Made by a program: the position numbers and the translations under genes
Part shown: one piece after another, positions 30,218-33,519 of the stretch
How positions within the stretch are numbered: position 1 is the first letter of the stretch
How the letters are laid out: every line of letters starts with the position of its first letter
DNA from: Polyangiaceae bacterium
GTDB lineage: Bacteria; Myxococcota_A; Polyangia; Polyangiales; Polyangiaceae
Assembly: GCA_036500245.1 (NCBI GenBank)
Contig: DASYCL010000684.1
Location: 1-41,188 of the forward strand
Reading direction: 5' to 3'
Length of the DNA stretch: 41,188 bases
Notes under the pieces: model-generated
Databases searched by the model: none
Told to the model about the DNA's origin: nothing
What the model saw: only the letters and a program-made list of their open reading frames with translations

Positions 30218-32038
30218 TCATTCAGCGGCCGAGGCAGCCGAACTCGGCGGTGGCGCGGGCGCTTTCGGCTCGGGCTTGCCGGCCCACCACGCCTTCAAAC
30301 GCTCCATGCTGAATGGCCGCGAGTAGGCCCAGAGCACCATCAAGCTCAGCGCATAGAACAGCCAAGCTTGGCCGACGAAGCGATCGTCGACCCAATAGAA
30401 GCCGGTCGGTGGGTTGAGCAAGATCGTACTGATGCCGCTCGTCACCACTATCGGTGGTCCGAGCGCAGGACGCACTGCGACCATGGCCGGTACGACCATG
30501 AACAGCGAATAGTAATAACAAGTGAGGTTCGTGAGCGAGATCACGAGGCACGAACCCACGGCGAGGCCGATCCAAAGCAACTTGGTGCGCCGCAGCGACC
30601 ACGCGGTCCACGCGAATGCGCCCGCGCAGATGAGCAGGAAGAGCGGCTTGACCGTCTTGAAGCGATCGATGCGGCTTTGCTTCCAACCCTCGAACGGGTC
30701 GTCCATGTTGTCGTCGCGCAAAAAGCGCATGCGCCCGTCCCAATTGGTGAGCAGCATGGTCTCGAGGCCCATGTGATTGGTGAGCGGAGTCGCGTTGTGC
30801 ACCTTGATTGTGTGCCCGAAGAACTGCTTGTACGAGTCGACGCCGCAGACCGCGACACTTGCCGGAATCAGCACGCCGGCCGCGATCAAACAGCCGGCGA
30901 TCAGTCGGCGATGGTCGCGTTGCAAGTAACCGAGTAGGCCCTTTTCAATTTTTATTGCTGGCGCGAGCGGTCCAGTTCTGCCGCGCCAGCCGCGACCTTT
31001 CACGACCGCTTCGTCGCCGGTCGTGCCGAAGCGATAGCGGCGGATGAGCTCGTAGAGCACCATGATGCCCCAGCCGCCGAAGAAGACGACCGGGAATATG
31101 CGCAAGAGAGACGACCAAGTGAGCGCGGCGCCGGACAAGAAAAACTTGCGCTTACGCGCGCAGCACACCGCGGCGACCAGGAAAAATAGCCAGTCTTGGC
31201 GCAGGAACGCGCCGCCCGTCCAATAGAAGTTTGCGGGCGCATTGCAGCCCCAAAACACCGTTGCGACGAGCATCACGCGCCAGCCGAAGGCCCAATAAAA
31301 TAGAGCCACGATGCCGACGTGCAAGAGCACGTCGATGCCCGATAAGATCTTGAAAAACTTGTCGCCGGCGGGCGCAAAACTGCCGAACAGCTTGCCCGTC
31401 ATCGTCCACACGGGTGGCGGATTGTACCCGTGGTCCTTCTGCATGTTGTCCCAGTAGCTACCGACCGACGAGTGATAAAACCAATCGACGTCCTTCTTCC
31501 AATCCTCCCAGCGTGCGGCCGTGAAGTGGTTCTTGCACTGGCCCGGATCGGTGAGGATGTACGTGTCTTTGACCGGTTTGATCAGGTTTACGTGCAGATC
31601 ACGGATCTCGCGACTCGCCACTTGAGCGCGGCGACCGAGCTCGATTTCGGCGATCGCGGTGCACTCGTAGAGTCGGTTATAGCCAATCTCTTTGAAGTAC
31701 TTCGAGCCGAGGTAATAGTGGAAGAACTCGTGCCGGTGGTAGTACTCGCTGTAACGAACGTTCGGATTGAAGAAGTCGAAGTAGGTGAAGAACGCGAGGA
31801 TGGTCAGGACCCACGCGATGTTCCGCTTGTAGCGGCGCGGAATGCGTTCACGCAGGCGCGCCGCGCGCACCTCGTACATGAGCAAGAGCGCCGTCACCAT
31901 CGTGAGCGCGATGCGCATGAACTTCATCGCGCCTTCCCAATTGTTCTTCTCGAAGATCTTGTTCTGCCAGAAGAAGTCCTGATCGGGAGCGAACGCGCTC
32001 AAATGAGAGATCGCGTTCACGACGGAAAGCAAAGTCAT
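30218..32038 (-). CDS. Polytopic membrane protein, GT-C/GT87 (DUF2029)-like glycosyltransferase
   Basis: Many TM segments, a large periplasmic loop, GYNPPPVW motif, FLRQDW, LRIFP. Confidence 0.55.
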   Translation of the reverse strand: MTLLSVVNAISHLSAFAPDQDFFWQNKIFEKNNWEGAMKFMRIALTMVTALLLMYEVRAARLRERIPRRYKRNIAWVLTILAFFTYFDFFNPNVRYSEYYHRHEFFHYYLGSKYFKEIGYNRLYECTAIAEIELGRRAQVASREIRDLHVNLIKPVKDTYILTDPGQCKNHFTAARWEDWKKDVDWFYHSSVGSYWDNMQKDHGYNPPPVWTMTGKLFGSFAPAGDKFFKILSGIDVLLHVGIVALFYWAFGWRVMLVATVFWGCNAPANFYWTGGAFLRQDWLFFLVAAVCCARKRKFFLSGAALTWSSLLRIFPVVFFGGWGIMVLYELIRRYRFGTTGDEAVVKGRGWRGRTGPLAPAIKIEKGLLGYLQRDHRRLIAGCLIAAGVLIPASVAVCGVDSYKQFFGHTIKVHNATPLTNHMGLETMLLTNWDGRMRFLRDDNMDDPFEGWKQSRIDRFKTVKPLFLLICAGAFAWTAWSLRRTKLLWIGLAVGSCLVISLTNLTCYYYSLFMVVPAMVAVRPALGPPIVVTSGISTILLNPPTGFYWVDDRFVGQAWLFYALSLMVLWAYSRPFSMERLKAWWAGKPEPKAPAPPPSSAASAAE

Positions 32039-32338
32039 CGCTCGTAGATCCTTCCGCTCACCCGGTCATCCCGGACGACGCAGAGGCGTGTTACACCAGA
32101 GCCGGAGCCTTGTCAGGTGCTTCGAGTTGGCTCAGTGTCGCAGCGCGGAGCGTGCTCTGAGCCATTTTTTGCCGGCCGCTGTGCCGGACTGTGCCGTGCA
32201 GGAGCACCCCCCAAATAAACTCGAGCCGGGCAATCCATTGGACCGCCCGGCTCGTCGTAGCCCCAAAATCCCGGAGGGTGAGGGGCGTTGACCTGCGCTG
32301 CCCGCGCGATCGACGCGCGAGTCAGATCAGGCCCAGCC

Positions 32339-32595
32339 GTAGTTGCGAGGCCCTGAATGCCCGATGACCGGGCCGACCTCGTCCGGCTAACCTCGAGGGT
32401 CCACCTCCGGGATAAAGGTACAACTACTCATCATGCCTGTCCTCCTCCGGCAATAGCCGGACGCCCGCGCCCCTCACTCAAACGAGAGAGGCTCATCGCT
32501 CGGTAAGCGGCGGTGGGGGCGCTTCCGAAAGGAGACCGATTCGCGGTCTCGACCCTAAAGTGCGAGGTGTAGAGGAGCTCCTCCACCGGACAAGC
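32339..32595 (+). ncRNA. Candidate structured non-coding RNA of unknown family
   Basis: Continuous set of helices in a 715-bp intergenic region, with GAAA and UUCG-containing loops. Most G-U pairs form on the + strand (details in findings). Confidence 0.45.
32387..32434 (-). CDS. Candidate 15-aa micro-ORF MMSSCTFIPEVDPRG
   Basis: GGAGGAGG Shine-Dalgarno 6 nt before ATG 32434; TAG at 32389-32387. Confidence 0.25.
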   Translation of the reverse strand: MMSSCTFIPEVDPRG

Positions 32596-32753
32596 CCGGG
32601 AACTTCTTCCTGCCTGCACGTTGCTGGAAAAAATAGCACTCGGCCCCCGAAATATCCAGGCTTTTATCTTTTTGGGTTAGGGGCGCGCCCAGCTGCGCGG
32701 TTCGGCCCGGTGGCGGACGTGATGCGCCTCGAGCCGCCGGAAGCTTGGGCTCG

Positions 32754-33299
32754 TCAATCGGCGATCGCGGTCGGGAGTGCGGTGCGCATGGCCGTCAAGT
32801 TGTAGCTCACGGTGCACGGTAGCGACGCGAAGCCGCCTGCTACGCCGACCCAATTCGAACACACACTGCCCGCTTCCGCGGAGTACGCAAAGCTCATGTT
32901 CACCGTGAAGCTCGCGACGTCGATCGTGCTCGAGCCGAGCACACCGCTCGCGACGTCGCTGCGCGCGACGGTGCAGCCGGGCCGCGCGCCTTCGGCGGCC
33001 TGCAACGTCACTTCGACGCCGCTCTGAAACGCGAAGCTCTCGCCGTCTTCGGCGATGGTGCCGGGGATCGCTTCTTCGCCGTTCAGCCAGTAGAGCGTGC
33101 TGCCGTCGCGCGAGAGCTGCACGTCGAAGGCCCAGCTGCTCGTTTCGCCGAGAATCGCACTGGCTTGGCAAGTGTCGCCGCTGAGGGTGCCGGTCGCGTG
33201 AAACGTGCCCAGGCGATCGCCGGGCTCGTGCGCGTCTTGGCCGTGCCCGACGCAGCCCGCGCACAAAAACAAAATCGCGCACACGACGTTCGGTCGCAT
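32754..33299 (-). CDS. Hypothetical lipoprotein
   Basis: MRPNVVCAILFLCAGC lipobox; beta-rich domain with paired Cys. Confidence 0.7.
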   Translation of the reverse strand: MRPNVVCAILFLCAGCVGHGQDAHEPGDRLGTFHATGTLSGDTCQASAILGETSSWAFDVQLSRDGSTLYWLNGEEAIPGTIAEDGESFAFQSGVEVTLQAAEGARPGCTVARSDVASGVLGSSTIDVASFTVNMSFAYSAEAGSVCSNWVGVAGGFASLPCTVSYNLTAMRTALPTAIAD

Positions 33300-33357: not shown

Positions 33358-33519
33358 TCAGGACTGCGCGGCCGGTTCCGAGGCGGGGGCGGCGTTGCGC
33401 TTCAGCGCGTCTTCCAAGCCGATGCGCTTGCGCTGGCGGAGCTTCACTCGCTTGCCCTTGAGCGGCGTGGTGAGCCATTCGTGACGACGGCGGACGTTCC
33501 AGATTGCGCGATTCGACAT
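33358..33519 (-). CDS. Small basic hypothetical protein (53 aa)
   Basis: ATG 33519; MSNRAIWNVRRRHEWLTTPLKGKRVKLRQRKRIGLEDALKR...; codons mostly end in G/C; fits between the lipoprotein and the divergent kinase. Confidence 0.55.
   Translation of the reverse strand: MSNRAIWNVRRRHEWLTTPLKGKRVKLRQRKRIGLEDALKRNAAPASEPAAQS

Follow-up and report, generated by a model that had tools for sequence, protein, structure and literature searches.

A conserved structured RNA gene of the Polyangiales with a micro-ORF and a second Shine–Dalgarno sequence anchored to its stop codon

Results

The locus and its predicted transcript

The window analysed here is a stretch of 41,188 nucleotides of DNA from a Polyangiaceae bacterium, in which a densely structured, non-coding RNA of about 260 nt, antisense to both flanking genes, had been proposed at 32339..32595. 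We are confident that the element at this position is a conserved structured RNA gene on the minus strand, carrying a micro-ORF that is under selection. It lies in the same sense as both of its neighbours, which in this genus are a 181-aa lipoprotein-like ORF and a gene for a 606-aa membrane protein. With its promoter, the element covers about 32213-32659 and runs past the proposed interval at both ends. The predicted transcript (32213..32623, minus strand) is the span from promoter to terminator and measures about 410 nt, with a 5′ end that is inferred to within 3 nt on either side; predicted lengths in the family are roughly 285-490 nt. Read from 5′ to 3′, the conserved anatomy consists of a multibranch domain, a GAA, the covarying helices P3 and P4, a first Shine–Dalgarno sequence (SD1), an ORF of 12-24 codons, a variable 3′ domain and a terminator.

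An alignment of 30 loci from the genus, including the window's own, contains a bounded minus-strand unit with a promoter-like site, a conserved 5′ end and a covarying terminator followed by a U run. The predicted extended -10 element, GTGC-TATTTT (32630..32639, minus strand), includes a CGTGCTA that is near-invariant in the 30 loci while its flanks diverge. The predicted -35-like hexamer CTGGAT (32654..32659, minus strand) lies 18 nt before it, a spacing that is conserved in the genus alignment, and reads CTRG or TTGG in relatives. Across the family TAnnnT is enriched 200-240 nt upstream of the AUG. A scan with the sigma-70 consensus found no promoter at the element, and the promoter call rests on this conservation.

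The 5′ part of the RNA folds into a predicted four-way junction (32560..32619, minus strand), made of a closing helix P1 and the hairpins P1a (32610-32599), P1b (32598-32587) and P1c (32586-32569). In 29 rows of the genus alignment, 116/116 cells are paired in P1a, 116/116 in P1b and 194/203 in P1c. Of 109 family members, 75 have a P1b-type hairpin, whose loop is AUGG in most cases, compared with 2.0 in shuffles, and G-C/C-G and G-C/A-U swaps occur between members. Hairpin P2 follows (32532..32550, minus strand) and varies in length among relatives. Next come the conserved GAA (32525-32523) and P3 (together 32461..32525, minus strand), in which 32522-32517 pair with 32466-32461 and enclose a variable arm. 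All five of five P3 pairs form in 79 of 96 members, against a null of 3.8% with random partners, and two-sided changes are found at all 6 pairs, both in the seed alignment A2 and in the held-out alignment A3. Of the cells in the seed alignment, 96.5% are paired, and two-sided changes number 51 (0/500 shuffles; slid controls 37-53%). The corresponding values for the held-out sequences are 95.8% and 98, from a model-fitted alignment of the kind that leans toward its own structure. Hairpin P4, CCGGC...GCCGG (32447..32460, minus strand), abuts P3 and lies directly 5′ of SD1; as some members were collected by means of a P4 pattern, its invariance is partly by construction.

Downstream of the ORF, the variable 3′ domain (32255..32386, minus strand) has a CGCGCG hairpin (32319-32303) and a GCCCC/GGGGC stem (32286-32260) that contains an anti-SD-like CCCTCC tract (32278-32273). 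The unit ends in a predicted intrinsic terminator (32213..32254, minus strand) with a 15-bp stem at 32254-32222 and a U tract at 32219-32213, for which 171 of 174 cells are paired in the genus rows. One loose caller finds a terminator in 97 of 111 family members and in 53 of 150 random sequence windows, and in the family it follows the stop codon by about 53-223 nt (5th-95th percentile).

Several tertiary or regulatory contacts were looked for without success. A three-way junction in which the pyrimidine linker pairs with SD1 or SD2 showed no preference for cognate partners (-8.16 vs -8.14 and -8.64 vs -8.45), and none was found for the pyrimidine tract of the ORF with SD1. A Loop-E (AGUA/GAA) pairing of the ORF start with the linker gave no registered pairing above the non-cognate level, and, judged by eye, the window's genus shows no compensation for a kissing contact of the linker with the P1b loop.

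Strand and structure of the original prediction

All strings listed in the original prediction, including its seven coordinate-anchored motifs, are present where they were placed. Its case for the plus strand turns around, because both folding energies and the balance of G-U pairs favour the minus strand. Unusually stable folding is absent on the plus strand (32330-32600, z -1.56, 12/200 shuffles as good) and is found on the reverse complement (z -3.34, 0/200); the full 412-nt minus-strand unit reaches z -5.47, compared with -3.3 for its own plus strand (60 shuffles). The G-U wobbles had been said to favour the plus strand as well, whereas the nine conserved helices, counted in 29 same-genus rows, contain 114 G-U pairs when read as minus and 15 when read as plus.

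Some of the proposed helices mirror real minus-strand helices and others are species-specific. TCCGGC/GCCGGA is the mirror of P4, GAGACC/GGTCTC is the mirror of P2, and the TCC-GAAA-GGA stem is kept in 81 of 87 cells. The remainder are poorly kept in the genus homologues: cells are unpaired or gapped in 65/203 cases for GTAGTTG/CAACTAC, 55/145 for CGAGG/CCTCG and 98/203 for GCGCCCC/GGGGCGC, where the conserved register is instead GCGCCC (32522-17) with GGGCGT (32466-61). That the RNA is independent, structured and conserved was borne out, and the collection of homologues and check for covariation that had been suggested gave homologues in 33/36 same-genus and 132/151 order genomes and the two-sided changes in P3 described above.

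The open reading frame and its peptide

The idea of a non-coding element did not survive the alignment, in which 30/30 genus loci carry an AGGAGG-type SD, an ATG and an ORF of 13-15 codons. In the window SD1 is AGGAGG (32441..32446, minus strand), followed by the 15-codon ORF MMSSCTFIPEVDPRG and TAG (32387..32434, minus strand). Across the family, 157 of 158 unique ORFs close within 12-24 codons, with a mode of 14, and 146 of 157 start with AUG. SD1 reads GGAGGAGG or GGGGGAGG in 135/157 ORFs, and its GAGG ends 8-11 nt before the start codon in 134/157.

The peptide changes freely. Its pN/pS is 1.07 (34 disjoint close pairs), a value near 1 that constraint on the RNA at synonymous sites confounds. 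The peptides are hydrophilic, with a median GRAVY of -0.51 (5th-95th percentile -1.44 to 0.45), and a loose pattern, M-[HDNQ]-S-T-x-G-L-S-x-E-V, recurs across families. On these sequences the peptide is likely a by-product of the micro-ORF and not its functional product.

Some further observations concern the ORF. Codons 2-4 (32423-32431 in the window, minus strand) follow a conserved NAN-WGT-A after the AUG, and AGT makes up 135 of codons 2-5, though it accounts for 6% of Ser codons genome-wide. On the plus strand these codons read as TAnnnT, antisense to codons 1-5, in 81 of 157 ORFs compared with 19 ± 4 in shuffles. Members from family f22 (L406-L408, L412, L413, L415, L420, L427, L433, L434 and L437) mostly have GTG starts and 20-24 codons, with the second SD still near the stop.

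A second Shine–Dalgarno sequence at the stop codon

The signature of the family is a second Shine–Dalgarno sequence (SD2) inside the ORF, anchored to the stop codon. In the window it is GGAGGTG (32402..32408, minus strand), 11 nt before the last sense codon; the modal spacing in the family is 8 nt. We scored SD2 as present when a segment ending 6-14 nt before the stop forms an anti-SD duplex of -7 kcal/mol or lower. Energies were computed with a 12-nt anti-SD, which matches the observed 16S tail except for its last base. The 16S rRNA is unassembled in G000; in five genomes of the order the anti-SD is the standard GAUCACCUCCUUU.

By this measure SD2 is found in 138 of 158 unique ORFs and in 61 of 1486 long genes of G000. 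Patterns or a model containing SD1, P4 or SD2 were used to find many of the members, and since the members are related their counts are not independent. That said, SD2 is present in 46 of 51 ORFs from members found without the SD2 pattern (by synteny or the SD1 pattern alone), and in 42 of 57 members held out from the seed of the model. It is weak or missing in 20/158 ORFs (15/57 of those held out) that retain the other features.

Over 139 ORFs the position of SD2 has a standard deviation of 1.7 nt when measured from the stop, compared with 7.4 nt when measured from the start. A gap of exactly 8 nt separates its end from the last codon in 100/157 ORFs (44/51 in the unbiased set), and the same rule picks out 19/1486 genes. 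This spacing is close to the 8-11 nt that separate SD1 from the AUG. The Glu codon at SD2 is GAG in 136 cases and GAA in 1, compared with a genome-wide GAG usage of 52%, and the codon after it begins with G in 128/137 (V, G, A or E). Variants of SD2 are found in other reading frames and in AAGGG, GGGGG and CAGG forms. From these sequence patterns, selection at SD2 appears to act on nucleotides.

What does SD2 serve? No AUG is found near the stop in 151 of 157 ORFs (6/157 have an ATG there), which disfavours ordinary reinitiation. Part of the conservation of SD2 could be structural, since ensemble predictions tend to place SD2 in pairs with the 3′ domain (0.45). The end of the ORF also folds better with its own post-stop sequence than with that of another member (-15.8 vs -14.3 ± 0.24 kcal/mol), while the share with five or more cross pairs between the two does not differ (0.81 vs 0.82).

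Distribution

With 32200-32700 as query, BLAST gave matches in 33/36 genomes of the same genus and weak ones in 2/24 other genomes of the order. An exact pattern run over the genome_contigs collection returned 49 records, nearly all labelled Polyangiaceae, Polyangiales, Myxococcales or Myxococcota with 'uncultured Sandaracinus sp.' and 'uncultured Sorangium sp.' among them. L052 and L057, two of the 49 records, were dropped as chance matches with long ORFs and no other feature. A pattern made of the P4 hairpin, SD1 and ATG matched 82/301 order genomes, with 4 control matches. Its loci have the same architecture in other families, after a minority with long ORFs was left out as chance.

The widest view comes from a covariance model of the core (R1, 54 seeds). 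It matches 132/151 order genomes, with one copy in each except for G074, which has two (L424 and L425) with nearly identical ORFs. Beyond the order it matches 2/2 genomes of f26 (same class) and 3/13 of f55 (another class). A second model, built from 59 held-out matches, did not extend the range (24/150), and under strict filters f26 and f55 are the only other families in the phylum sample in which either model found the RNA. A loose phylum-wide pattern was set aside as uninformative, with matches in 205/401 genomes, many of them by chance. Among viral_contigs, 12 pattern matches gave 0 that passed the member filter, compared with 19/120 in metagenomes. The RNA was found in 4/5 further genomes of the family, the four being the complete ones, and complete single-contig genomes with the RNA are G105, G129, G145, G168 and G275. 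A search for a second copy in G000 gave only a chance-level match of 41 nt. Two unpublished genomes, G034 and G340, contribute one row and one count, and no claim depends on either by itself. Several of the smallest order genomes gave no match to the RNA (G085, G043, G260, G270 and G051; 1.8-4.0 Mb, including all three of f8), and other small genomes of the order retain it.

Gene neighbourhood

The element is a stand-alone gene. In the genus, the 606-aa gene is on the same strand as the RNA and syntenic with it in 29 of 30 loci. The same flanking gene pair occurs without the RNA in L107, L110 and L111. Among 67 diverse members the flanking ORFs point either way, and those scanned (91/130) belong to unrelated families, among them YceI, YchF, HrcA, VWA, Maf, SpoU and an HtrA-like protease.

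The neighbours merit some description of their own. The 606-aa protein (30218-32038 in the window, minus strand) is a multi-pass membrane protein without a Pfam or NCBIfam match, often multicopy, and found in 137/201 family genomes. GT87 is present in 13% of its Atlas neighbour members, which hints, as a lead only, at a GT87/GT-C glycosyltransferase. Between the RNA terminator and this gene lies a promoter-like pair CTGACA...TGTAAC (32088-32116, minus strand), which is TGACA...GTGTA in close relatives, and others have -10-like sites of the form TAGCCT/TACTT. In 88 fetched loci an unannotated gene for a 53-aa basic protein, MSNRAIWNVRRRHEWL... (33358-33519 in the window, minus strand), without a Pfam match, lies two genes upstream of the RNA. 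It is present in 10/10 f1 and 7/7 f11 genomes, including a reduced one of 1.8 Mb, was not found in other families, and looks, from its sequence, like a small nucleic-acid-binding protein. Downstream of the RNA, several other genera of the family have a tRNA gene (L335:2466-2538, L325:1027-1099, L322 and L336); this adjacency is shared with rreB, which neighbours tRNA-Gly in the passages of PMC5711450 available to us, and is probably a coincidence.

Presence in RNA libraries

Contigs matching 32276-32608 at an identity of at least 85% are found in three metatranscriptome runs from two studies and in one run of guessed type. Some have depths of 70-83 on the element and little on the flanks, and over 8 kb at 80% identity the element bins are the deepest in X2 and X5. 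These contigs are relatives' sequences, unstranded and chosen for holding the stretch; their depth is unsuited to ranking, and they speak for presence in RNA libraries only. Of the sampled words, 5-9% are present in the RNA runs, and the element lies outside the coverage of X3.

Searches against known families

The absence of a recognised family, claimed in the original prediction, agrees with the Rfam search it called for: Rfam 15 gives 0 matches in the window at the gathering threshold and 0 at E<=10 in 32030-32800. A resemblance to the 3′ end of c-di-AMP (ydaO) riboswitches had also been suggested. The segment in question is the reverse complement of the last codons of the ORF and its stop, and a ydaO identity found no support in the same Rfam search. 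In 15 diverse members Rfam matches only flanking tRNAs and, once and by chance, CcsR1, and ARAGORN finds nothing in the window. The RNAs tmRNA, RNase P and SRP score above their cut-offs elsewhere in G000, and the element was rejected as any of these. An identity as 6S RNA was rejected as well: a sub-threshold 6S candidate sits elsewhere, on contig C575 (G000:C575:1224-1420, L036; 32.3 bits, cut-off 46.4), and is probably a divergent Polyangiaceae 6S.

A CsrA sponge of the CsrB/RsmZ type was considered and discarded. CsrA is found in 27/81 order genomes; it is present in 0/10 genomes of f17 and 1/10 of f9, families in which the RNA occurs in 16/20 and 33/34 genomes, and variants of SD2 keep GAGG or GGGG rather than GGA. 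A type I toxin mRNA is disfavoured, the hydrophobic peptide expected of one being at odds with the GRAVY range given above, and a leader-peptide attenuator was rejected for want of a fixed co-oriented downstream operon across the order.

We found no description of this RNA in the literature searched. It may appear as an unnamed motif in the supplements of PMC11109978 or PMC8632094, or in closed papers; myxobacterial terms are absent from the main text of the former and from one supplement file of the latter.

Discussion

The family described here is real and undescribed, single-copy and near-universal in its order. From its sequence, the RNA is best read as a stand-alone structured mini-mRNA that would load a ribosome and likely parks it at termination. 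A Shine–Dalgarno sequence that precedes the P-site codon by about 8 nt is in position to pair with the anti-SD, and SD2 has this geometry with respect to the last codon. In vitro, an SD upstream slows the release of mRNA from post-termination complexes about 50-fold (Chen et al., PMC5737721). It is from this geometry and these kinetics that we infer loading at SD1 and likely parking at the stop.

How might such an RNA work? The stacked P3 and P4 would leave SD1 exposed, and a ribosome would initiate there. A dozen or so codons on, it would stand at the stop, with SD2 placed for pairing with the 16S anti-SD. This pairing would slow the release of the mRNA, and the ribosome would dwell until it is split by RRF and EF-G. 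Because the end of the ORF folds better with its own post-stop sequence than with another member's, a parked ribosome would melt and hold open a hairpin that otherwise covers the ORF end and the stop codon, and RNA folding or turnover would be coupled to the state of termination and recycling. We put the chances of such a ribosome dock, with the ORF loading a ribosome at SD1 and SD2 likely parking it at the stop, at about even.

Other explanations share part of this evidence. A dual-function or trans-acting sRNA, in which translation does no more than protect or process the transcript and the ribosome-binding sites of other mRNAs are paired by the 5′ junction or by a CCUCC-type tract of the 3′ domain, would suit the predicted promoter and terminator and the anti-SD-like pyrimidine tracts that many members have in 3′ hairpins. 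The 70 nt past the stop also pair slightly better with the cognate SD1 (-10.5 vs -10.0 ± 0.11), and one member has a chance-level similarity to CcsR1 (E 0.65). However, the 3′ domain is the least conserved part of the RNA, in length and in sequence, and therefore holds no conserved seed, and the tracking of the stop codon by SD2 is left unaccounted for; we consider this reading unlikely. It is decidedly improbable that the peptide is the product, as a signal, a modified-peptide precursor or a small regulator, with the RNA structure only controlling its synthesis. An ORF with a strong SD is kept in 157/158 members, and M-x-S/C-S/T and x-E-V residues recur. Against this stand the pN/pS and the 136:1 bias for GAG, an ORF length that ranges over 12-24 codons, a motif that lies in other frames in 7/124 and 15/59 members, and the lack of a conserved modifying enzyme beside the RNA.

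The idea closest to the original prediction is an antisense-controlled pair resembling a type I toxin-antitoxin system, with a plus-strand RNA that runs from near the AUG over SD1 and the 5′ leader. The enriched TAnnnT antisense to codons 1-5 would fit its promoter and anti-SD tracts could silence the mRNA, but this TAnnnT is absent in 76/157 ORFs, no conserved -35 or plus-strand terminator was seen, the G-U pairs favour the minus strand by 114:15, and the peptides are short and hydrophilic and come from a single conserved chromosomal copy, all of which makes such a pair very improbable. We give hardly any credence to a role as 5′ leader of the GT87-like membrane gene downstream, be it a leader-peptide attenuator or riboswitch-like. 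The synteny and shared strand in 29/30 genus loci, the order of short ORF and terminator, and small possible antiterminator hairpins in some genus members are what such a leader would have; across the order, though, the next gene is unrelated and often convergent, no regulatory codons are shared, and the membrane gene, which is preceded by a -10-like site of its own past the terminator, is found in L107, L110 and L111, where the RNA is missing.

Read as a ribosome-loading mini-mRNA, the RNA is closest in kind to rreB, and by analogy may work alike, with a short ORF for ribosome binding. According to the passages of Hahn et al. (PMC5711450) available to us, rreB is a stand-alone mRNA of 165 nt whose 14-codon ORF is preceded by a 17-nt SD that binds the 30S subunit. 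In the same passages, rreB and rreR of Alphaproteobacteria are free-standing small structured mRNAs with their own promoter and terminator (predicted here), an ORF of 14-18 codons (modal 14 in our family), a genomic context not conserved beyond the family, and a proposed role in ribosome binding and RNA turnover rather than through a peptide. The rreB RNA, as portrayed there, has one extended SD of 16-17 nt reaching into a GUG start and a conserved peptide, whereas ours is about 285-490 nt long, with a large multibranch 5′ domain, an SD1 of 6-8 nt, a mostly AUG start, a peptide that varies freely and an additional SD tied to the stop codon. The defining 16-17-nt complementarity is absent here, SD1 (GGAGGAGG or GGGGGAGG) being followed by non-complementary spacers, and the RNA is therefore not a member of rre, a group also marked by co-sedimentation with 30S subunits and by turnover that depends on the start codon.

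Other known systems share single features with it. In termination-reinitiation and at internal SDs of the prfB type, SD-anti-SD pairing takes place at or near the stop within ordinary mRNAs, and couples or frameshifts the ribosome into a downstream frame. Our RNA resembles these cases, and the post-termination complexes with an upstream SD (PMC5737721), in such pairing by a ribosome at or near the stop, which here would be likely; it differs in having no downstream start and in making the arrangement the conserved core of a dedicated gene. Dual-function sRNAs such as Spot 42/SpfP (15 aa) and RNAIII also have their own transcription unit and an SD-led ORF of about 15 codons within a structured RNA; we see neither their conserved base-pairing seed nor a conserved peptide here, and a stop-anchored SD is absent from those systems, as far as the passages of PMC12310071 available to us describe them. 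The same passages held no myxobacterial example. Pxr of Myxococcus is, like our RNA, a small RNA conserved throughout a myxobacterial lineage, but in the parts of PMC5684412 and PMC8538405 available to us it is a three-stem-loop sRNA of the Cystobacterineae, whereas this RNA is longer, bears an ORF, belongs to the Polyangiales side and has no Rfam match. Finally, RNAs with the CCUCCUCCC motif such as CcsR1 (RF02791), which is linked to a small ORF, have anti-SD-like tracts in hairpins downstream of that ORF, as here; the match to CcsR1 is at chance level in 1/15 members (21.8 bits, cut-off 65.3), and our RNA lacks repeated modules.

We place the family among ribosome-binding small mRNAs, possibly as a separate new class. 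It is conceivable, if somewhat doubtful, that this would be a near-universal, housekeeping-like RNA class of the Polyangia, with a dummy ORF on which SD2 clamps a ribosome at the stop, acting as a sensor or store for recycling, and with the 5′ four-way junction as an effector or protein-binding module.

In summary, an undescribed RNA gene is present in one copy across most of a large and deep bacterial order and beyond. Such an order-wide, one-copy distribution is otherwise typical of tmRNA, RNase P, SRP and 6S RNA. SD2 appears to be a natural and strongly selected SD for a terminating ribosome, an arrangement known in vitro and not, in the literature searched, as the core of a gene. With this RNA, ideas on how termination and recycling might be sensed or tuned in bacteria become cleanly testable.
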